From assembly GCA_963788655.1 (NCBI GenBank), contig CAWBHS010000013.1, positions 1 through 12,258 of the forward strand: DNA of 12,258 nucleotides. The letters are read 5' to 3'. Source of the DNA: an uncultured Verrucomicrobiae bacterium. GTDB taxonomy: Bacteria > Verrucomicrobiota > Verrucomicrobiia > Limisphaerales > JAFGQR01. Both the position numbers and the translations under genes were made by a program. A model generated the notes under the pieces. The model ran no database searches and was not told where the DNA came from. It saw only the letters and a program-made list of their open reading frames with translations. How positions within the stretch are numbered: the stretch's first letter is position 1; each line of letters opens with the position of its first letter. Below are positions 1-12,258 of this stretch, piece after piece.

Positions 1-101
1 TTGGATTCATGTGAAGTGGTCAGTAATGTGGAGTAGTGGGGGCGATCACTGCGGCTGGCGCGGGTTCGGCTCGTGTTTTACTTCACATTATTGACAAGGG
101 G
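1..101 (+). repeat. Left terminal inverted repeat (>=101 bp; may extend beyond window start)
   Basis: 1-101 is the exact reverse complement of 3462-3562; identity breaks at 102/3461. Contains ATGTGAAGT (9-17), ATGTGGAGT (26-34) and inverted ACTTCACAT (80-88). Confidence 0.97.
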
Positions 102-128
102 ATTGGGGTTTCCCGGTTGCTGCCGGGA

Positions 129-2438
129 ATGAAAGCAATATTACCTTGCAAACAGTTTCGTATGCCTCCAGGGCCTCGGTCCCGGTATCGTCAACTGCCG
201 GTCATTGGTCCGGTCTTGGACGATATGCTGACTTGGCTTCGGCACCACGAATACGCCGAGTCGACACTCCGTAATTACCTCAAGGGGATCAGTTGCCTGA
301 TCCGCTGGCTAAAACGACGCCGAGGACCTGCCCTCAAGGGACTCACGCAACTGGATTTGAGTGCGGCCTACGATTGGTTTCGCTTACGTCGTCCGGATGT
401 GGCCGGCACGACGCGCGCCGTGGAAAGATTCTTTCGAGATCAGCAACTGATTCCCGAAGGCCAGGCCGCTCCGCTCCTGGCTTCGGAGCGGGAGTTGCAA
501 GCTTACGGCACTTATTTGCGAGAAGTGCGCGGCATGGCGGAGTCGACTATCGCGGGGCACCAGAACCGCCTCCGGTTCTTCCTGCGATTCCTGAAGTTTG
601 ATCAAGACCCTGCGGTAATCCGCAGGTTACGGACAGACCGGATCGCGGCCTTTCTGCGCAAGGCGGCCAAAACCAACAACCGGTTTAGCCTCCCACACGT
701 CGTCGCCTCGTTACGTGGCTTTCTCCGGCGGCAGCATGCCCAAGGCGTTATCAAACAACCGTTACATCAGCAGATCGACACCCCGCGCACCTACCGACTG
801 GAGCAACTGCCGCGCGCGTTGCCCTGGGAGCCGATCGTTGCGCTGCTCCGCTCCATTGACCGCTCACAGCCGGCTGGTCTGCGTGACTTCACCCTGTTGT
901 ATATGGCGGCCCGGTATGGTTTGCGCAGCGGGGAGCTGGTGCGACTGAAATTGGAGGACATTGATTGGCGTGCGGGTATCCTGCAAGTCCCGCAAACAAA
1001 GACCCGGCAGGTTCTCCGACTGCCCTTGACCGATGAAGCCGGGGATATTTTCACGCGCTACTTAAAAATCGCTCGCCCACGCAGTTCGTTTCGCGAACTG
1101 TTCCTACGGCGACGAGCTCCGATGGGGCCGTTAGCCCCCACGGCCGTGCATGATATTTTGGAGCATCGCATCGGCCAGAGCGGTCTGGATCTTCCCCCGA
1201 TGGGCACGCATGCGTTGCGCCATTCACTGGCGGTTCACCTGTTGCGCCGCGGAGTTACGCTCGGAGCCATCGGGGATGTGCTGGGACATCGTGATCCAGA
1301 AAGCACCACCGTTTATCTCCGTTTGGCGGTCGACGATCTGCGTCAAGTGGGCTTGGGCGTGCCCCAAGGTGGAACCGCCGCCATGCTGGAACCCGCCGGT
1401 TGGAACGTCAAATTGCTCCGCGTGGGTCCCGTGCGAGCCTTGCCCTTGACCAGCGCGGATTTTCACAGCAGCTTGGCGAACTCCCTTCGGCTCTATCTGG
1501 CCAACCGTCGCGCTTTGGGCCGACGCTATGACCGGGAAGAGACCGTACTCCGACGGTGGGATGAGTTTCTGCATCGTGAGTTTGGTTCGGTGCGCCAAGT
1601 CCGCTCCGAGATGTTTTACCACTGGTCGCAGACCCTGACCAAACTCCACCCGACAGTGCTCCGGAATCGCCTGCGGATCGTGCGCAACTTTCTGCTTTTC
1701 CATGCCCGCCAGCATCCGAAAACCTTCATCCCGGATTTGGCGACCTTCCCCAAACCCAGCCCGCATCGTCCCCCATATCTGGTCTCGGCCTCGGAGATGG
1801 CCCGGGTGCTGGCCACGGCCGATCAGTTGCCAGCCTCTCATCAAAATCCTCTTCGACCTCAAACCGTTCGGTTGGCATTGCTCCTGTTGTTTTGCTGTGG
1901 CTTGCGGCGCGGTGAGTTGTTGCGCCTGCAATGGCGCCACTGCGATCTCCAGGAAGACCTGCTCCGCATCGAAGCCACCAAGTTCCACAAATCTCGCTTG
2001 GTTCCTTTATCCAAATCCGTCGCCCAAGCCTTACAATGGTATCGGGCACTGCGACGGCGTCGAGGGTTGGCGGTCCAACCCAACGATTATCTCATCTGGA
2101 GCGATAATCCCGTGGCTGCCACCCAAGTCTATAGTGCTTCCGCACTCGCCGGCAATTGGCAGTTCTTATGTCTAGCCACCGGGGGGCTAGACGAACGCGG
2201 TCGTCCCCCACGAATCCATGACCTCCGGCACAGCTGCGCGGTAGCCATTTTAGAGCGGTGGTACAAAACGGGCACAAATCTCCACACCAAGCTGCCCCAT
2301 TTGGCGACTTATCTTGGCCATGTTAATCCGGTTTCCACGCACCACTATCTCCACCTCACGCCGGAGCTGCAACAAGCCGCCAACCGGCGCTTCCATCAGT
2401 ACGCGTTCCCCATCTTTGCCGACGGAGGTGCCGATTGA
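129..2438 (+). CDS. Double tyrosine recombinase, RitA-like + RitB-like fusion (~769 aa)
   Basis: Two full catalytic sets. Module 1: YGLRSGE / QTKT / HALRH / LGH..STTVY (Tyr at 1314). Module 2: CGLRRGE / TKFHKSR / HDLRH / YLGH..STHHY (Tyr at 2346). Module 2 begins with the RitB-type FHSSLANSLRLYLANRRALG. The ORF-track start (GTG 36) lies inside the IR; ATG 129 or ATG 162 is more plausible. Confidence 0.88.
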   Translation: MKAILPCKQFRMPPGPRSRYRQLPVIGPVLDDMLTWLRHHEYAESTLRNYLKGISCLIRWLKRRRGPALKGLTQLDLSAAYDWFRLRRPDVAGTTRAVERFFRDQQLIPEGQAAPLLASERELQAYGTYLREVRGMAESTIAGHQNRLRFFLRFLKFDQDPAVIRRLRTDRIAAFLRKAAKTNNRFSLPHVVASLRGFLRRQHAQGVIKQPLHQQIDTPRTYRLEQLPRALPWEPIVALLRSIDRSQPAGLRDFTLLYMAARYGLRSGELVRLKLEDIDWRAGILQVPQTKTRQVLRLPLTDEAGDIFTRYLKIARPRSSFRELFLRRRAPMGPLAPTAVHDILEHRIGQSGLDLPPMGTHALRHSLAVHLLRRGVTLGAIGDVLGHRDPESTTVYLRLAVDDLRQVGLGVPQGGTAAMLEPAGWNVKLLRVGPVRALPLTSADFHSSLANSLRLYLANRRALGRRYDREETVLRRWDEFLHREFGSVRQVRSEMFYHWSQTLTKLHPTVLRNRLRIVRNFLLFHARQHPKTFIPDLATFPKPSPHRPPYLVSASEMARVLATADQLPASHQNPLRPQTVRLALLLLFCCGLRRGELLRLQWRHCDLQEDLLRIEATKFHKSRLVPLSKSVAQALQWYRALRRRRGLAVQPNDYLIWSDNPVAATQVYSASALAGNWQFLCLATGGLDERGRPPRIHDLRHSCAVAILERWYKTGTNLHTKLPHLATYLGHVNPVSTHHYLHLTPELQQAANRRFHQYAFPIFADGGAD
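2424..2429 (+). promoter_or_regulatory. Shine-Dalgarno for the RitC-like gene (translational coupling)
   Basis: GGAGGT 5 nt before TTG 2435 in a TTGA start/stop overlap. Confidence 0.7.
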
Positions 2439-3452
2439 AAAATCGGCCCCATCACCGTCTTAGCGTCTGCCTTACGGGGCTTCTTTACCGACTACTTGCC
2501 CCGGCAGAAAGCCATGAGCCCACATACGGTTGCCAGCTACCGAGACAGCCTAAAGCTGCTGCTGCAATTTGTCGCCGGGAAGAAGGCCGATCCCAGTCAG
2601 TTGGCCGTCGAGCAGTTGACGGTTGAGCAGGTCACTGCGTTTTTGCAGCATCTGGAGACCGAGCGCCACAATGCGGCCCGCACACGCAATGTACACTTGA
2701 GTGCCATTCACAGCTTCTTCCGCTATTTGGGGGCCCATTATCCCCAGCACCTGGCGCAAACTCAACGCCTCCTGAGTATCCCATTTAAATGCACCGCTTC
2801 CCGCGAGATCCAGCACCTGGAGTGTGCGGAAATCCAAGCGGTGCTCCGGGGCATCGACCAGCGGGTCGGCGAAGGTCAGCGCGACTTTGTGCTGTTAAGT
2901 CTGTTGTTCAACACCGGTGCCCGCGTCAGTGAAGTGGTGGGGTTACAAGCCTGTGATCTTCGTTTAATCCCACCGACCAGTGTTCTCTTGCGAGGAAAAG
3001 GCCGAAAGGAGCGAGTCTGTCCCCTTTGGCCGGAAACCGTCCGGGCGTTGCGGCAGTATCTGGAGGGCCGTGCCATCGGCCTCGAGGAAAAGCGCAGTGT
3101 GTTCTGCAATCATCGGGGATTTCCGCTCAGCCGATTTGGGATCCGCTGGATACTGCAAAAGCATGTCCATCAAGCCGCCCGCCATACCCCGACACTGAAA
3201 AAGAAGCGGCTTCACCCGCACAGTTGGCGTCACAGCACTGCGGTTCACCTCCTCCGATCGGGAGTCGATTTAAGCACTATTGCGCATTTGCTTGGACACG
3301 CGAGCGTGAACACCACTAATAAGTACATCACGCTTGATCTGGAGGCCAAACGGGAAGCTTTGGCCAAGGCAAAACCAATGTTGGCGCGCAACGGTCAGTC
3401 GGGGCGATGGCGATCAGATCAAAATCTGATCAAATGGCTGGAGTCGCTATAA
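2435..3452 (+). CDS. RitC-like tyrosine recombinase (~338 aa if one base is removed at 2438-2450; intact frame 2439-3452)
   Basis: RitC-type N-terminus LASALRGFFTDYLPRQKAMSPHTVASYRD extends upstream of the ORF-track start at 2496. Catalytic motifs TGARVSE / GKGRKER / HSWRH / LGHASVNTTNKY (Tyr at 3324). SD GGAGGT (2424-2429) precedes TTG 2435, which overlaps the upstream stop but is one base out of frame. Confidence 0.88.
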
Positions 3453-3461
3453 TCGTCAAAA

Positions 3462-3562
3462 CCCCTTGTCAATAATGTGAAGTAAAACACGAGCCGAACC
3501 CGCGCCAGCCGCAGTGATCGCCCCCACTACTCCACATTACTGACCACTTCACATGAATCCAA
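3462..3562 (-). repeat. Right terminal inverted repeat of the RIT-like element
   Basis: Exact reverse complement of 1-101; begins 9 nt after the RitC-like stop codon. Confidence 0.97.
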
Positions 3563-3852
3563 CGCCGCAACTTCCAGCGCCGCATCCGGATTGCAAATCA
3601 GCGCTCCGAGTCGGAAGTCGGAACGGAATAAACCCCGCTGGGGTGAATCCCATAGAAACGCAAATTTCAGAGAGGCGTCGCATCACCGAATTCCAGATTC
3701 ATCCGCATCGGCTTTGTCATCGACAGTCAAACCCGGCCATAGGTTGCAGAGCGCGCGCGAACCGCGGCATTCCGGCAGGGCGACACCAATGGGCCTTGTC
3801 AGCGATCATTCCAGCGCTCAACGCAGGGGTTGCCGATTGGCGCAAACCTGCT

Positions 3853-3876
3853 AGCGCAGAGTTGCAACTCGGCGCT
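3853..3876. repeat. REP-like palindrome AGCGC-A-GAGTTGCAACTC-G-GCGCT
   Basis: 24-bp palindrome with one mismatched pair in intergenic DNA. A related degenerate copy (CCGGATTGCAAATCAGCGCTCC) lies at 3586-3607. Confidence 0.55.
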
Positions 3877-3955
3877 GCGGGAAAGTCCAGTCCAGCTCCC
3901 CATCTCTTCGATAATCCTTGCTCGTATTCGAAGCAACCGGTTTGATCCTTGTACC

Positions 3956-6908
3956 GTGAAGCCAATCATCTTTATCAGTGCTCTGCTATTGGGCGTTGCT
4001 GCGATGGCCCAGGAGACCAAGACCGCAGCCGTCGGCCAGCGTCCTTACGAAATGGTCTGGGCCAATCGGACCAATGACGACCATGCACCGCTGGTCGATT
4101 TCGAAAACCTCTCCGGCTGGCACGTGGCGATCAAAGACGCGGAGGCTACGTTTCAGCGCACGCGCGAGGAACAAATTTGGGGCAAGTACGTCGGCAAATT
4201 GGCTTACCGCGGTGCGGGTAACCAACCTGAAGTCCGCGTCCTACCGCCGGCGCCGATTCCCATCAAGGTGCCCTTTGATGCCGTGACGCTCTGGTGCTAT
4301 GGCAACAACTGGGGCTGGGCGCCCGATCCGAAGACGCCGCAGGTGCGCCTTACGGCTTTGTTTGCGGATGCGTCGGGCAAAGAATTTGCCGTCTATCTCT
4401 TTAACGTCAATTGGACCGAGTGGTATCTGCTACACAAGCGGCTCACGCCGGAGCAAATTGAGCGCGTCAAGCACGGGGCCAGCTTCGTCGGCCTGCTCAT
4501 CGCCGGTGGCAACAATCAGGAGGATCGAACACTTTACTTCGACAACCTCGCAGTGTTCACCGAACAATTTCCGCCGCTCACCTTCAAGCCACGGCCCGAA
4601 CGCGGCGTTGCCATGTTTCCCGGCCAATCCGTGGGAGCCAACACGGGGCCGGGTAAACTACCATTCCCCACTCGTCCAGAAACCATTCTTCCCGATAATC
4701 TGACGTCGGATTTCAAAGTGACGACCCGCGCGCGGGAAAACGAATTCGAGCTGGTTTATGAAGGCAAGGACGGACGGTTGCTTTACCGGCTGAAACCACA
4801 AACAGGCACTTGGAGCGATGTCACTGCGGAAGGCGAACTTCGACCGCACGACAGCGCCGCGCCGGAAGGGAAAGCGGATTTCAAAATCCACCCATGCCTG
4901 GACGGTGGAGTTTACCTCGCAACCGCGAAAGGTCCGGTGCTGCCTGAGCGAGTTGAACATCTCGGCACCCAACAAAAGGGCGACACCATTGAATCTCGGT
5001 GGCGGCTGACCGGCTTCGGGTACGACCGCCGAGGTGACTTTTGTCTATCGGCTGTGGAACAAGTCCCTCGTCATTGATGTCCTGGCGCCCGGCGGTGGAA
5101 TTGGGGAGGTGCGCTTTGGCCGGGTTGCGGGATTGGACCACCCGCAGTTGGTGACCAATCCATTTTATCCGGCCGAAGGCGGACGCCCGGCGGTGGCGGT
5201 TTCGGGTTCCACCAACGCACCACTATTCCTGATGGGCAACGTGGATTGGTATCGCTCGAACGCCTCGATTATGTGGGCGGCCAACTCAGTTTCGGAACAA
5301 GGCGCGGTTTACAATGGCGGCACCCGCTACGTGCCGCTGACGAACGGCAAACGCAATGATTGCTTCGAACGATTCTTTATCACCATCGCGCCGCGCTTCG
5401 AGGAAGTGCTGCCCAATATCCCGAATCCGATCTCGCCCTGGAAACAGATCACCGGCACGCGACTCTGGCGGGCGCACGGGGCTTCCAATCGCGAGCGTGA
5501 CGCGGAGCATTGGACCGAGTGCCATCGCTGGGGCATGACGCAGGTCATCGTGACCGATCACGAAACCGGCTGGCGCGACGGCGGGGAGAGCTTCACCTTC
5601 CGCACCCGCGCCGCGCCGGGCAAAGGCGGAGACGCCGGCCAATACGATTACGCCCGGTTGATGCAGGATAAGCTGGGTTTCGTTTATGGTCCCTACAACA
5701 ACTACACCGATTTCGCGCCGGTGAATGAGTTCTGGAATTTCGACCTGATCAGCCGCACGCCGGACAATCAATTGCAACACGCCTGGATGCGTTGCTACGC
5801 GCCCAAACCGGCACGGGCGGTCGAGTATTGCGCCCGGTTGGCACCGCGGATCGAACAGAAGTTCCATTTCAGCACCGCTTATTGCGACGTGCATACCGCC
5901 GTCGCGCCGTGGCACCGCGTCGATTACGATCCGCGCGTGCCGGGGGCAGGCACCTTCGCGGCGGTCTTCTATGCCTACGGCGAAATCATGCTGCTGCAAA
6001 AGCGGGCCTGGGGCGGACCGGTCTATTCCGAAGGCAACTACCACTGCTTCTACAACGGGCTTACGGATGGCAATTACGGTCAGGACCAAAGCTATCGCCC
6101 GGCGGAGAATCCCTGGCTGGTGGACTTCGATCTCCGTAAAATGCACGATCTCGGTTGTAACTTCGGGATGGGCAATCCCGGTATGTTCTTCGCCAATGAT
6201 AAACACGCGATGGAGGAAGAAGGCTGGTTCGACCGATTTCTGGCCGCCACGGTGGCCTTTGGTCATCCCGGTTTTCTCACTTATGAAGGCGGTCTTCCGC
6301 ACGCGCTGAAAAGCTATTATATGCTCCAGCAACTGCACAGTCGCTATTGCCTCGCCAGCGCCTCCGACATCCGCTACGCCGACGCCGAGGGGAAGTTGCT
6401 GGATACTTCTGCTGCGGTGGCTAGCGGTGCTTACCGGCGATCACAAATCGTCACGCGATACAGCGACGGCACGATCACCGCCGCCAACGGCAGCAAAACG
6501 GAGCGCATGAAGGTCCAAGCGTACGGACGGGATCTCGATCTGCCGCCGAACGGTTACGCCGGGTGGACGGAGGACGGGCAGATCGAAGTCCTCAGCAGCG
6601 ATCCTCGAGGGCACCGTTGCGACTACGCCGCGACGCCCGCCTATCTGTTCATCGATGGCCGCGGGCAGTTCGTGCGTTTCCCGAAAGCAGCCGGCAACGA
6701 CATCGGCATCTGCCGGATGCTACCGGACGGCCAACATGAAATCCTGCTCTACAACAACGCCGAGTGCGGCTTTGCCATCACGGCTTCGTCGGCGATGGCT
6801 TTGGACAAAGAAGGCCAAGAAATGGGTCCGGCCGCATTGCGCACTGCGCGCGGATTGACTTACGTCATGCCAGTGAAAGGCGCGTTCAGTTATTTGCTCA
6901 AAAAGTAG
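3956..6908 (+). CDS. Large secreted protein, putative glycoside hydrolase (GH101/GH129/DUF5696-like barrel); one +1 frameshift near 5010-5012; ~983 aa when joined
   Basis: GTG 3956 gives a Sec-type signal peptide MKPIIFISALLLGVAAMA|QE. ORFs 3830-5077 and 5034-6908 join seamlessly (..SRWRLT-ASGTTAEVTFVYRL..) on removing one base. Aromatic-rich C-terminal half has YNNYTD, YCDVH and YSEG motifs. The family assignment is inference. Confidence 0.6.
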
Positions 6909-6928
6909 GACCGGCGTCCCGCCTGTCC
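6905..6928 (+). repeat. GTAG-type REP hairpin overlapping the stop codon
   Basis: GTAG leading into GGAC-C-GGCG TCC CGCC-T-GTCC, an imperfect hairpin with typical REP architecture; its TAG (6906-6908) is the stop of the upstream gene. Confidence 0.65.
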
Positions 6929-6989
6929 CGAACAGCCATAGGGCGTGCAATTTTTCTTTGGCGTCTTTGAGTTAGCGGTGATCGAACAT

Positions 6990-7136
6990 CGCGCAGCGTC
7001 TGGAGTGCGTGGAGCTTGCTCCCGCTTTGGTGAGGTGTTGCACGTACGCAAAGCAGTGAACCGTGCCTCAGACAATCGTTCGTTTCTTGACCGCCGAAAG
7101 CGCCGGCAAGCCGGACGCACTCCAAACGCTGGCGCG
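6990..7136. repeat. REPIN-like element: two inverted ~40-bp REP units
   Basis: 6990-7028 CGCGCAGCGTCTGGAGTGCGTGGAGCTTGCTCCCGCTTT aligns with the reverse complement of 7097-7136, CGCGCCAGCGTTTGGAGTGCGTCCGGCTTGCCGGCGCTTT. Each unit contains its own hairpin. Confidence 0.8.
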
Positions 7137-7367
7137 AGTCACGGCGCACCGTTTCAAAGCGAGTAAAATCTCCCCCAAAATCGCCCTTCATCGCTTTGCA
7201 TTTTCTTGCTGCATTTCGCATTTCAAACTGCAAGAGTGTTCGGGCAATGAATCGCAAGACAATGGCCGCCGTCCTTACGGGCGCGTTTTCTGACATCACG
7301 GTCCACTTCGAACCGCGCGACGTGTTCGCGCCCCGCCCCTGACCCGCAAGGCGATCCGTTCTACGGG

Positions 7368-9439
7368 ATGCCGCGCGAGCGGCTTCGCAACTTCGGCATC
7401 ATTGCGCACATCGATGCCGGGAAGACGACGACCACGGAAAACTTGCTGCGCTTCGCCAAGGTCATCCACCAAACGGGCACGGTGGACGAAGGCAACACGA
7501 CCACCGACGATTACCTCCTGGAACAGCGCAAGGGTATCACGATCTTCAGCGCAGCCATCACCTGCCAGTGGCGCGACTGCATGCTCAACCTGATCGACAC
7601 GCCGGGACATGTGGATTTCACCGCCGAAGTCGAGCGTTCGCTGCGCGTTCTCGATGGGGCGGTGGTGGTCTTTGATGCGGTGTCAGGCGTCGAGGCTCAA
7701 ACCGAGACGGTGTGGCGTCAGGCCAACCATTATGCCGTGCCGCGGCTGTGTTTCCTTAACAAAATGGACCGGGTGGGCGCCCGCTTCGAGGCAAGTCTGG
7801 AGTCCATTCGTCGTCGGCTCGATGGCCGGCCAGTGGTCTTGACGATGCCCGCCGGCGCGGAGGCCGGATTCGCGGGCGTCATCGACGTGCTACGAATGAA
7901 GCGCCTGCGCTTCGATCCGGCGACCGAGGGGGCGACGATCATTGAAGACGAGGTCCCGCCGGAACAGGCCGAAGAAGCGGCGCGTTACCGCGCGGAAGCC
8001 ACGGAAGCGGCGGCGGAGGCGGACGAGGAACTCATGGACAAGTTCATCGAGAACCAGCCCCTGACCCTTGACGAGATCAAGCGCGGATTGCGCAAGGCGA
8101 CGTTGGCGTGCCGTATTCAGCCCACGTTTGCCGGCGCCGCAAGGTTGCACGCGGGGGTGCAGCCGGTGATCGATGGCATCGTCGATTTCCTCCCATCGCC
8201 ACTGGATGTTCCGATCATTGAAGGACGCGATCCCGAGGGTAATCCAGCCCGCCGTGACCTGCGAACGGACACGCATCTTTGTGCGCTGGCGTTCAAAACG
8301 AGCACGGATCAGCATGGCGAGTTGACGTTTCTGCGCATCTACTCCGGTTCGCTGCACCGGGGCGACCGGCTTTACAATCCGCGCGCCGGCCAGCCGGAAC
8401 GTCCGCTCCGGCTTTACCGTATGTTTGCCAATCACCGTCGGGATGCGATTGAGGTGGCGGGACCGGGCGAAATCGTGACCGTCGTGGGACTCAAATCCAC
8501 TGTAACGGGCGACACACTATGCGACAAACGGTGGCCGATTCTCCTGGAGACGATGCACTTTCCCGAGCCGGTGTTGCAGGTCGCCATCGAGCCCAAGTCG
8601 AGCGCGGATCGTGACAAGTTGAACACAGTCCTCCATTGGCTGGCGAAAGATGATCCGACTTTTCGGGTGGCGAAGCACGCGGATACCGGGCAGACCATGC
8701 TGCAATGCATGGGCGAATTGCACGCCGAGGTAATCCTGTTCCGAATCACAAACGACTTCAAAGTGGCCGCGACACTGCGTGAACCGCAGGTGGCCTACAA
8801 GGAAATGCCCCAAACGTCCGCCGAGGGCGAAGCAACGTGCGCGGTCAAACTCGGCGATAAAAGCGTGTTCGGGCACGTGCGCGTCCGGGTCACTCCCTCG
8901 ACGCAGCAAGTGGCACCTCGCGTGATCGAGGACTTTCCCAACGAGGTGACGCGGAAAGCCCTGGCGCGTTTTCTGCCGGCAATCAGAGCCGGTTTACTCA
9001 GCGAAGCGGGCAGCGGTCCGGTGGCCGGTTATCCGTTGATTTACTCGGAACTTCGGCTGCTCGGGGGAACCGTCACCACCGAAAGCGCGGACGCCGCTTA
9101 CAGTTCTGCCGCCGCCAACGCGGTTCGCCAGGCGGTGGCGCAGACCAAGGCGACGATCGTCGAGCCGCACATGACCTTCGCGGTGACGGGGCCGGAACAA
9201 GCGGTTGGCAACATCGTCAGCGATCTCAACCGTCGCGGCGCCAGCATCAGCGATATTCAATCATCGAGGGCAACCGCAAGGTGGTGCGGGGCACGGTCCC
9301 GTTGTCGCAGATGTTTGGCTACGCGACCACCATCCGCTCCCTCACGGGTGGCTTGGGTTCCTACACCTTGGAACCGTTCGATTATCGACCCTTGGCGGAA
9401 AGCGAATACCAGCGGCGCTTCGGTTATGGTTCATCGTGA
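7368..9439 (+). CDS. fusA: Elongation factor G paralog (EF-G2/spdEFG2-like); one-base deletion near 9260; ~690 aa when joined
   Basis: Motifs AHIDAGKTT, KGITI, DTPGHVDF, NKMDR, MGELH, PQVAYKE. The true domain V tail (IEGNRKVVRGTVPLSQMFGYATTIRSLTGGLGSYTLEPFDYRP..GSS*) is in another frame from 9260 and ends at TGA 9437-9439. No adjacent rpsL/rpsG/tuf. Confidence 0.92.
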
Positions 9440-9480
9440 CGGCGGAAAGCGCCTTAACCGTCACCATGCATTTGCGTGTC

Positions 9481-9626
9481 GGGAGCGGGCCCGCCTCGGG
9501 CGCTACCAACCGGCGCCCTCGCCGGTTGGTCCGGTGGCCGAGACGTCATTGAATCGTGAGGCTACTCGGATATTCGAACGTGGTTGGCGAGGCGCCAACC
9601 ACGGCGCCCGAGGCGGGCGCGCTCCC
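9481..9626. repeat. REPIN/MITE-like structured element
   Basis: 23-bp terminal IR with 22/23 match (9481-9503 / 9604-9626), each arm abutting a perfect 11-bp hairpin (9505-9530; 9579-9603). Confidence 0.85.
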
Positions 9627-9658
9627 CGTTCGAACTAAATCAGGACGGCTTTTACATT

Positions 9659-10543
9659 ATGCTGAAACTGGAATACCTGGCTGAGTTGGTGGAGACGAAT
9701 CGAGAAGCGCTGTCCGCGACGGTCAAAGAATTTTCCCTGGACGGCCGCGTTTTTGCCTTCAATACCCGTCCCGCATTGATGGGCGTGGTCAACCTTTCCG
9801 CCGATTCATGGTATCGGGAAAGTGTTTGTCTTTCCACTGAACAAGCCGTGCAACAAGCCCTCGTGCTGACGGCGCAGGGAGCGGACTTGGTGGACGTGGG
9901 CGCCGAGTCCACGCTGGCGCAAGCGGCACGAGTTGATGCGGCGGGGCAAACGTCCCGGTTGCTGCCGGTGATTGCGGCGTTGCGGCAGGCGAACGTGCTG
10001 GTATCCGCGGAAACCTATCAGCCGGCGGTCGCCCGGGCCTGTTTGGAGGCGGGGGCCAAGGTGCTCAATCTTACTGGCAGCGATCACGGCAACGAAATCT
10101 ACCGGATGGCTGCCGATCATGCGGCAGCCGTCATTATCTGTTACGTCCAAGGGCCCAATGTTCGCGAGGTGGGCGATTTCGACTTCGGGGCTGATCCGGT
10201 GGCTGGGATGTCCGGATTCTTTGCCCGCCAGATCGAAGCCGCCGCCGAGCAGGGCGTGGAGCGTATCCTGATTGATCCGGGCCTGGGTTTCTATTACCGC
10301 AATGTCGAGGACGGCGCGGGCGGTTCGGCCGGGATGACGGTGTTCTTCGGCAGCTTTCGGTTGCGGTCGTTGGGCGTTCCGATTTGTCGGGCGTTGCCGC
10401 ATGCGTTCGAGTTCTTTGGCGAGGAAGTGCGCTGTGCGGAACCATTCTTTGCGGTGCTGGCGGCGTTGGGGCGCACCGATGCACTTCGCACTCACGAAGT
10501 GGCCCGCACCAAAGCGGTGCTGGAGACACTCCAGGTTTTTTGA
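9659..10543 (+). CDS. folP: Dihydropteroate synthase-like pterin-binding TIM-barrel protein (divergent, 294 aa)
   Basis: LMGVVNLSADSWY, GADLVDVGAEST, SAETY, VLNL, LIDPGLGF and RTHEV correspond to DHPS motifs. ATG 9659 is preferred because the ORF-track start (9584) lies in the repeat element. Confidence 0.75.
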   Translation: MLKLEYLAELVETNREALSATVKEFSLDGRVFAFNTRPALMGVVNLSADSWYRESVCLSTEQAVQQALVLTAQGADLVDVGAESTLAQAARVDAAGQTSRLLPVIAALRQANVLVSAETYQPAVARACLEAGAKVLNLTGSDHGNEIYRMAADHAAAVIICYVQGPNVREVGDFDFGADPVAGMSGFFARQIEAAAEQGVERILIDPGLGFYYRNVEDGAGGSAGMTVFFGSFRLRSLGVPICRALPHAFEFFGEEVRCAEPFFAVLAALGRTDALRTHEVARTKAVLETLQVF

Positions 10544-10613
10544 AGCGCGAGGATAAGGTGGAATGCCAGGGGTGTCGGGCGAAGGCTTTGGGTAATGACC
10601 GAGGAACCAATTC

Positions 10614-12258
10614 GCTCTGTAGCAAAATTTGTGGGTGGATTTGAAACAGAGCGGACTATGAAAAAGGAAAAAGGTGCGTCGCCAGAGTGACGATATTGCT
10701 GAGCGGGACGAACGGAACATATGGAGGAGGCTCAACCGGGTGAGAGGAATACCGCCGGACCTGGGACACCTTGCGCACGATCTGAGCCGCATTTCAATGA
10801 GAAAAAGACAGGCTCCGATCGGCGCCTATCCCCATCGGCGACCCTCCCCTCAACCTGGCGCTGGTGGACAACCGACGGCTGGGACTACGGGGCGGAGCGT
10901 GCGTGGCAAAAAAGAATAGCTGATCCCCTTGTGCGCCGATTAGTTTCACTTGCAAACAAAACAAACCATCGACCCGGGAACCGGCTGTTCAACTCGAAGT
11001 TAAAACCATCCTGAACCGGATACAACGTTTTGCGGGGTTCGTTTACAAGGAGGTCCGGCTCCTGTGCGAGCGCGACAAGCTGCGCGTTGAGATTACCCTG
11101 GAGGCGCATCGAGGGCGGTGCGGCAGGTGCTGGAACTCCCTGGAGCCGGCGCCACCGTTACGACCGAGACCCGGAACGAACCTGGCTCTTTGTGCCGCTG
11201 TGGGGCATTAAAACCGAATTCCTCTATGCGCCGCGGCGGGTGGAGTGTCCCACGCATGGGGTCATCGTCGAGCACATGCCGTGGAGCCGGGGCAAGAGAC
11301 CGATCACCACGGCGATGATGGGATTCTTGGCGCGATGGGCGCGGCACTTGTCCTGGCGACAGACCGCCCTGGCGTTTCAGACCAGTTGGGAAGCGGTCTA
11401 TCGTTCGGTCGAGTGGTTCGTGGAGTGGGGGTTGGCCCACCGTCAGATTGAAGGGGTCCAATCCCTTGGCGTCGACGAGATCCATTGGGGCCAAGGCAAG
11501 CGGGCGGAGCAATTCCTGACCGTCATCTACCAGATCGACCAGCACTGTCGGCGGCTGTTGTGGGTGGGGCGCCGACGCACGCAGGCCACGCTGCGCCGGG
11601 GCTTTGAGGCGTTGGGGCCGACGGTGCTCAGCGGCGTGCGCTTTGTCTGCAGTGACATGTGGCGGGCCTACCTGAATGTGATTGGGGCCAAGATCCCGCA
11701 CGCCTTGCACGTGTTGGACCGTTTCCACATCACGATGCATTTGAATCAAGCCGTCGACCAAGTGCGCCGAGCCGAGAGTGGTCGGCTGCGGGGACGTCCC
11801 GCGGCCAAAAAGCTCAAGCACATGCGGTGGAAGTTGCTGCGCCGGGGAAATCGGGTCCGCGGCCGGGCCAAGCAAAAGCTTTGGGGACTGCTGCGCAGTA
11901 AACTGGCCACTGGGCGAGCCTGGATGCTCAAGGAAACCTTCGAGCCGTTCTGGCGCTATCGCTCTGTCACTTGGGCCAGGGCTTTTCTGGACGTTTGGAC
12001 TGAACGAGCTCTGCGCAGCCGCCTTGAACCGATGGCCAAAGTGGCCAGGATGCTGCGCAACCACCAAGAGCTGCTCTTGAACTGGTTCCGCGCCAAAGGG
12101 GAACTCTCGTCCGGCCCGGTCGAGGGTCTGAACAATAAAATCCGAGTGGTGACCAGAAGATCCTACGGATTTCGCACCTACGACGCGATGGAAATAGCCT
12201 TGTATCACACGTTAGGCCGGCTCCCAGAGCCGGAAACTACCCACAGATTCTGCTGACG
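10614..12258 (+). mobile_element. ISL3-family insertion sequence (~1.65 kb; right end truncated by the window)
   Basis: Imperfect IRs 10621-10641 vs 12234-12254 (17/21 match; AGCA.AAT.TGTGGGT). The transposase stop lies inside the right IR. Confidence 0.85.
10987..12256 (+). CDS. ISL3-family DDE transposase; +1 frameshift at ~11150-11158; start codon unclear
   Basis: N-terminus LEVKTILNRIQRFAGFVY..LEAHRGRCGRC is in frame 1 (10993-11150) and continues in frame 2 as YDRDPERTWLFVPLWG..RRVECPTHG, GVDEI, CSDMW, LDRFHI, VEGLNNK, RRSYGFR. Confidence 0.9.

Follow-up and report, generated by a model that had tools for sequence, protein, structure and literature searches.

A probable RIT element subfamily in which ritA and ritB form a single gene encoding two tyrosine recombinase modules

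The window analysed here is a stretch of 12,258 bp that makes up the whole of contig C13 (CAWBHS010000013.1) in a verrucomicrobial metagenome bin (8.96 Mb in 115 contigs, 86% complete, 5.6% contamination). It begins with a mobile element that resembles the RIT (recombinase in trio) elements. Canonical RITs carry the tyrosine recombinase genes ritA-ritB-ritC, as in Cupriavidus metallidurans CH34, and are described in the account of that strain as three adjacent genes whose ends share 4-8 bp (Van Houdt et al. 2012, PMC3414803). In the window, the first two of these genes are replaced by one, ritAB, whose product contains two complete tyrosine recombinase catalytic sets. We consider it very probable that positions 1-3562 are a complete RIT element belonging to a distinct subfamily, composed of ritAB and ritC, in which RitA and RitB would act as a covalent heterodimer. 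The fused gene would be a new variation on known RIT elements. No description of a fused RitA-RitB form was found in those parts of the RIT literature, or of the literature on double and fused tyrosine recombinases, that were covered by our search; the work of Ricker et al. 2013, which is said to deal with canonical RIT elements, lay outside that search.

Results

The frame encoding ritAB is free of stops from 36 to 2438 in the open reading frame (ORF) listing, and its ATG at 129 shares an alignment column with the starts of most homologues. Pfam detects Phage_integrase (PF00589) in two stretches of the product (E 4e-47; 160.6 bits against a cut-off of 27.1). The first, RitA-like module also has two matches to SAM-like/core-binding families, Phage_int_SAM_4 at residues 30-153 and Phage_int_SAM_1 at residues 124-200, with the catalytic domain at residues 237-400. 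This module can be aligned to Escherichia coli XerD (PDB 1a0p) over the Arg, Lys, H-x-x-R, His and Tyr motifs, and its catalytic codons are those for R266 (at 924), K291 (999), H361 (1209), R364 (1218), H387 (1287) and Y396 (TAT at 1314-1316). The second, RitB-like module is 29% identical to the first in an alignment that spans all the catalytic motifs; here the catalytic codons are R593 (1905), K618 (1980; or K621), H697 (2217), R700 (2226), H731 (2319) and Y740 (TAT at 2346-2348). Each module has the R...K...H-x-x-R...H/W...Y catalytic set of the tyrosine recombinase superfamily. A preliminary description of this DNA had read two complete sets in one frame, with tyrosine codons at 1314 and 2346, and the sequence, Pfam and the XerD alignment all bear this out. 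Among NCBIfam models, XerC and XerD score highest for the modules, at 185.5 and 185.0 bits, which is far below the 335.15 and 329.6 bits required of the XerC/XerD dimer-resolvase equivalogs.

Both catalytic sets are conserved in an alignment of 67 fused proteins that are 29-81% identical to the window protein. In module 1, R266, K291, R364, H387 and Y396 are invariant, while H361 and H365 are present in at least 90% of the sequences; in module 2, the invariant residues are R593, K618, K621, H697, R700, H701, H731 and Y740. Both active sites are maintained by selection across the fused clade.

Fusion of the two modules is the rule among the close relatives of ritAB. A word-indexed protein search gave 622 significant matches, and our counts rest on the best 120 of these, with identities of 53-81%. 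Module-wise BLAST showed that 119 of the 120 run from the end of module A through the linker into the start of module B as a single chain, and 103 are at least 730 aa long; the lone exception, P0046, is the shortened ORF of the second copy of the element in this genome. The concern in the preliminary description that the close homologues might all be split into separate genes was not realised, as the closest are fused. The homologue records come from JGI, ENA, Logan and NCBI, and many are on contigs of about 3.4-3.9 kb, which is the size of the element. An exhaustive search of representatives at 50% identity detected 14 full-length fusions in the best 150, down to 30-33% identity, and the ESM Atlas has clusters of 767-781 aa, each with 52-67 members. 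Source names of the homologues include Verrucomicrobia, Limisphaerales and Planctomycetes; these names, like the taxa of the nearest ESM Atlas clusters, fit a verrucomicrobial bin. Database names of the homologues are generic ('integrase/recombinase XerD', 'tyrosine-type recombinase/integrase'). Judged from these sequences, the sharing of one junction by 119 of the 120 listed homologues is far beyond chance. As the fusion recurs in over a hundred relatives, RitAB can be regarded as a natural single-chain recombinase pair. The only clearly longer protein among the 120 best, P0079 (947 aa), was considered as a RitABC triple fusion and rejected; it consists of a B-truncated RitAB followed by unrelated sequence.

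The length of the linker is also conserved. A stop-free linker of ~32 aa had been described previously, and the same segment is found in the homologues between an invariant P412 and a nearly invariant F445: among the 67 fused proteins there are 32 residues in 40, 33 in 15, 31 in 8 and 30 in 2, with single proteins having 37 and 38, such that 65 of 67 fall within 30-33. The junction is spanned without gaps by contigs from three public runs, all of which cover 1409-1591. Contigs of runs X1 (1103-1591) and X2 (1409-1601) have 0 differences from the window, and one of X20, from a different study, spans 1207-1655 with 7 substitutions and no gap. The earlier suspicion that the fusion is an indel artefact is not borne out by these contigs, in which there is no indel across 1320-1460. 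A TTGA at 1446-1449 had been proposed as a possible ritA/ritB overlap. The TTGA is present and, as originally stated, no Shine-Dalgarno-like sequence is found upstream of the TTG at 1446. Its use as a start is unlikely, however: the residue aligned with this codon is Leu in just 12 of 18 fused sequences, and hence there is no conserved internal start in the linker.

Relationship to canonical RITs was assessed with three query pieces, A (aa 1-439), B (aa 440-769) and C (the translation of 2439-3449), which were compared with all stop-to-stop ORFs of at least 120 aa in 124 loci (L013-L136). These loci came from peptide-pattern scans of genome and metagenome contig collections, which gave mainly distant split RITs and four fused loci. 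Nearly all of the 124 have three separate ORFs matching A, B and C in order, amounting to about 100 canonical three-gene RITs, and each module of the window matches the corresponding ORF of the trios better than the other two, giving the A-B-C order on one strand. The proposal of a two-gene RIT subfamily is upheld by these matches to RitA, RitB and RitC, by the conservation of the fusion and by the grouping of the fused proteins in one clade of the RitA tree (see below). Among 100 adjacent pairs of separate A and B ORFs, B is in frame -1 relative to A in 87 and in frame +1 in 10, and the remaining 3 pairs share one frame. A single A-B ORF is restricted to the closest of the 124 loci: L057, with a partial fused ORF of 68-70% identity; L058 and L059, with 764 aa and 46% identity; and L060, with 804 codons from stop to stop and 42-48% identity. 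Among the split loci, the nearest are L061-L063, with 37-48% identity. A search of 72,556 plasmids produced 746 matching records, all with less than 60% identity. Among the 30 best of these, the match falls on two 'tyrosine-type recombinase/integrase' genes in 27 and on genes with other names in one (H16), and 2 are unannotated; in an example from Sinorhizobium, the recombinase genes are separate. Two further ORFs, L049:3237-5120 (628 aa) and L052:2734-4824 (697 aa), which belong to distant RITs in Acidoferrales and Thermoleophilia bins, respectively, join a truncated RitA to a full RitB. These were examined as fusions, set aside as degenerate and left uncounted; they look like products of deletion or frameshift with no kinship to the fused clade.

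The element thus shares several features with canonical RITs, namely A, B and C recombinase modules in that order on one strand, a 4-nt start/stop overlap at the B/C junction, terminal inverted repeats (TIRs), a size of ~3.5 kb and several copies per genome. Canonical RitA proteins have two sequential core-binding domains, and RitC proteins an extra conserved C-terminal helix, in the description of their domains in PMC8138268; the counterparts in the window would be the two SAM-like Pfam matches in module 1 and a conserved C-terminal segment of RitC ending in WLESL. The main difference lies in the gene arrangement. Canonical elements have separate ritA and ritB genes with a 4-8 bp overlap, whereas here a single ORF carries both A and B with a ~32-aa linker, and the TTGA overlap at the B/C junction is shifted by one base. 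The repeats are also longer: RIT TIRs are quoted as 34 bp in PMC10214605, and two Sphingobium RITs are given 47- and 51-bp imperfect palindromic end repeats in the relevant section of PMC5737581, whereas the TIRs here are ~100 bp. Finally, the fused subfamily occurs mainly in Verrucomicrobiota-type bins instead of Alpha- or Betaproteobacteria.

The extent of the element was set by comparison with a second copy at C51:10266-13827 (loci L002, L003 and L005), which is 99.9% identical over 3562 bp. Beyond the element, the copies in C13 and C51 have different right flanks, which sets the unit at 3562 bp. As the contig begins exactly at the element end, the window copy is without a left flank. With perfect 101-bp TIRs and a second copy having a different right flank, the element shows the inverted repeats and the movement as a unit, with several copies in different contexts, that are expected of a RIT. 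Differences of the C51 copy from that in the window are one G in a run of G at 105, an additional G at 1544/1545 and an A-to-C substitution at 1547. The extra G is a frameshift in the RitB module, dividing ritAB into ORFs of 489 and 329 codons, and at position 1544 short contigs of runs X1 and X2 agree with the window version against that of C51. Elements of the same plan are found at L058/L059 (3549 bp, with a 97-bp TIR of the same layout) and at L060 (3559 bp).

Repeated motifs are present within the TIRs. A motif scan of the left TIR found ATGTG[A/G]AGT three times, in forward orientation at 9-17 and 26-34 and in reverse at 81-89; at each element end, two of the copies are direct and spaced by 17 bp, and the third is inverted. 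The left TIR also contains an internal 17-bp inverted repeat (19-35 with 79-95), such a repeat being present in each end, and a single-strand DNA fold of the TIR has an energy of -16.5 kcal/mol (z -4.0 against shuffles). A perfect palindrome adjoins one end of the element in the left flank of C51 and in the right flanks of L058/L059 and L060. This palindrome consists of two inverted copies of the motif that is found three times per TIR; in C51 the core is 20 bp, or 32 bp with spacers. In C51 and L058/L059, the terminal 6-7 bp of the element recur in inverted orientation beyond the palindrome. Contig C52 starts with the 20-bp palindrome that is found in the C51 flank; its spacer is different, so C52 is at best a candidate for the missing left flank.

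RitC has the catalytic set R162, K187, H261, R264, H265, H287 and Y296 and the conserved C-terminal W..WLESL tail. In L057, L058 and L060, the start codon of ritC is GTG or ATG and lies in a 4-nt overlap with the ritAB stop (GTGA or ATGA, the latter in L058/L059 and L060). In the window, a run of five A residues at 2438-2442 leaves the TTG at 2435 one base out of frame with the body of RitC, and, owing to one extra base at the start of ritC, this body shares the frame of ritAB directly behind its TGA. With one base fewer, the N-terminus would match that of L057 residue for residue, and the frame is indeed restored in a 96% identical contig of run X4, from another study, by the absence of one base at 2443. 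The extra base is common to both copies in this genome. A promoter scan identified no site better than chance, and Rfam and tRNA scans of the window gave no match. Coordinates are collected in Table 1.

Table 1. Features of the fused RIT element at positions 1-3562 of the window
Feature	Coordinates	Strand	Details and basis
Left TIR	1..101		Perfect 101-bp match to 3562-3462; blastn, repeat search
ritAB, fused gene	129..2438	+	769 aa; TGA stop 2436-2438; ORF list, Pfam, homologue alignments
RitA-like module, aa 1-412	129..1364	+	Pfam, XerD 1a0p alignment, invariance, best match to RitA of canonical trios
Linker, aa 413-444	1365..1460	+	Length conservation (67 sequences); gap-free contigs of X1, X2 and X20
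RitB-like module, aa 445-769	1461..2435	+	Matches to trios, invariance, alignment to module 1
ritC	2435..3452	+	TTG 2435 in TTGA overlap with ritAB stop; body 2439-3449; stop 3450-3452
Right TIR	3462..3562		Element end 3562 is the divergence point of the C13/C51 flanks

Origin of the fusion was examined with trees of the separate modules. The RitA-module tree (IQ-TREE quick search) has 79 rows, of which 23 are fused, 53 split and 3 outgroup, and omits 73 listed proteins that could not be classed by the coverage thresholds as well as most of the fetched loci. All 23 fused rows are inside one 27-row clade (SH-aLRT 95). The four rows of this clade that were scored as split comprise two frameshifted ends, one protein truncated past the linker into module B, and P0156, which is discussed below. 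In a RitB-module tree of 54 rows, all fused rows are in a 41-row clade (SH-aLRT 96). The fused clade is wide, found mainly in Verrucomicrobiota-type metagenome bins, and apparently of single origin. Among 300 sampled genomes, the only match at E <=1e-60 was in a complete genome of the same phylum, G189. This genome has three identical RITs (L137, L138 and L139) in which the TGA of ritA is followed by two codons and then by the ATG of ritB, all in one frame. This arrangement is one substitution short of a fusion and may represent the precursor state. The fusion probably arose by loss of the stop at the usual overlapping, or in-frame, ritA/ritB junction.

Discussion

RIT elements are widespread, but, according to the section of PMC10214605 that deals with them, no laboratory has yet reproduced their transposition. 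Similarly, the need for three recombinases to cut four strands is left unexplained in the discussion of RITs in PMC3414803. A conserved RitA-RitB chain would imply that these two recombinases are an obligate 1:1 neighbouring pair and that, in the working complex, the C-terminus of RitA is within reach of the N-terminus of RitB. RitAB may act as a covalent RitA:RitB heterodimer, with the tether fixing the ratio at 1:1 and holding the modules on binding sites that are next to each other at an element end. Both RitAB tyrosines would cut DNA, and RitC would supply a third activity. It is also reasonable to propose that the synapse would be heteromeric, the subunits differing in the strand or end that they cut. 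More tentatively, and with a probability that we would put well below even, the fixed 30-33-aa tether may set the geometry of RIT recombination, such that A and B lie head-to-tail on the direct sub-sites 17 bp apart, RitC binds the inverted sub-site or the end palindrome, and three kinds of active site share four ordered cleavages. If true, this geometry would answer why RITs need three recombinases and would offer a ready scaffold for recombinases acting on asymmetric sites.

Parallels for such a pair exist in both engineered and natural systems. Lansing et al. (2022, PMC8776779) describe RecF8, an engineered Cre-type heterodimer in which two different tyrosine recombinase monomers are linked from C- to N-terminus by ~24 aa (a 24-aa linker), enforcing the heterodimer; in the experiments reported there, it recombines an asymmetric site and loses activity on symmetric ones. 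RecF8 is man-made and has a GGS-type linker, whereas RitAB is natural and ancient, has a basic linker of 30-33 aa and is partnered by RitC. RitAB can be viewed as the natural equivalent of designer recombinases that are linked as heterodimers for genome surgery. XerC and XerD at dif are likewise paralogous tyrosine recombinases that work only as a 1:1 pair, with a separate half-site and strand for each, but they are separate proteins, while RitAB belongs to a mobile element with a third recombinase. Tn554 (TnpA/TnpB/TnpC), GInt and the SE elements are also transposon-like and require more than one tyrosine recombinase; these have other recombinase subfamilies and gene sets, and no fused pair is reported for them in the portion of PMC10214605 that treats them. 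A practical consequence of the fusion is that a RIT system could be rebuilt from two proteins instead of three.

Several observations weigh against our reading of the element or limit its reach. The roles given to the sub-sites rest solely on motif counts, and the pairing of modules with sites and the role of RitC are guesses. P0156, one of the split rows within the fused RitA clade, has a possible genuine stop in the linker and is perhaps a true secondary split. At the base of the RitB clade, the fused groups and a 13-row split clade form one polytomy, and for this reason the RitB module neither shows nor contradicts a single origin. Runs X1 and X2 may derive from the sample behind the genome assembly and hence are not independent of it; their contigs also do not extend over 2381-2499, the region of the ritC start. 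The element was not found in any RNA run among the public runs searched. Finally, there are frame faults in both copies, at the start of ritC in each and in the RitB module of C51, so the element is at best putatively active in this host. The element in this genome may be disabled or mis-assembled.

The likeliest alternative takes the family as genuine but its copies in this genome as dead relics, with ritC untranslatable from its own start and the RitB module of C51 broken. We regard this as possible, though less likely than not to apply. The A5 run puts the TTG of ritC out of frame in both copies while the 96% identical relative represented by X4 is one base shorter at 2443, and the extra G in C51 shortens the ORF to 489 aa. 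However, the two copies are 99.9% identical and the body of RitC is intact with all its catalytic residues, and hence any damage must be very recent. Probable indel errors also occur in conserved genes of the same contig. As an EF-G-like gene downstream is frameshifted near 9261 and there are 37 gaps between this contig and a near-duplicate, C81, an assembly error is at least as likely as a mutation to account for the extra base in ritC. At 1544, moreover, X1 and X2 favour the window version over that of C51.

It is also conceivable, but improbable, that the long ORF yields two proteins, through internal initiation or cleavage of the linker, in which case the fusion would be mechanistically meaningless. 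The linker is the least conserved part of RitAB (mean conservation 0.39 against 0.67 elsewhere in the 67 sequences), being basic and variable in sequence with only W425, L429-P430 and R433 semi-conserved, and there is an in-frame TTG at 1446. Against this, the linker lacks a conserved start codon, the narrow range of lengths in 65 of the 67 proteins is unexpected for a mere spacer that is to be cut or bypassed, and the fusion persists down to ~30% identity. In many hetero-oligomeric recombinase systems, one partner is mainly regulatory, and one module of RitAB could similarly be catalytically dead, serving as a structural or DNA-binding partner; retention of the R-K-H-R-H-Y set in both modules of the 67 sequences (with H361 and H365 at the frequency given above) makes this very unlikely. 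The proposal that a missing or extra base in the tail of RitA masks a stop at TGA 1447-1449, with ritB starting from TTG 1446, draws on the indels elsewhere on the contig (the EF-G frame lost near 9261 relative to C81, and the 37 gaps) and on the indel differences between the element copies, all three of which are homopolymer-length changes, but it has in effect been refuted by the 119 of 120 homologues, from many independent assemblies, that are fused at the same site with the same linker length, by the three gap-free contigs from at least two studies, and by the lack of a Shine-Dalgarno-like sequence and of codon conservation at TTG 1446.

Other features of the window

Two long ORFs just outside the element, at 3830-5077 (415 aa) and 5034-6908 (624 aa), have no Pfam match. 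Positions 6980-7140 contain an interspersed repeat of ~150 nt with inverted ends, which had no Rfam or tRNA match; one 43-nt arm (7095-7137) is found at more than 60 places in the genome with 95-100% identity. The EF-G-like gene is at 7368-9638. Its frame is lost near 9261, giving a nonsense tail with 38 of 89 EFG_C positions matched, while C81 has one more C at this site and an ORF of normal length. The window from 4958 to 12258 aligns with C81:1-7280 at ~96% identity with the 37 gaps mentioned above, and mismatches are concentrated in 4957-6457 and 9957-11457; the C13/C81 pair may be strain variants binned together or reflect a noisy consensus. A segment of ~180 nt at 9439-9650, covering the end of the EF-G-like gene and the start of a gene for a pterin-binding (DHPS-like) protein, is repeated on at least 15 other contigs with 79-88% identity. 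An ISL3-family transposase gene at 11030-12256 is cut off by the end of the contig, and five other copies in the genome are ~96% identical to it, with 17-18 gaps each.

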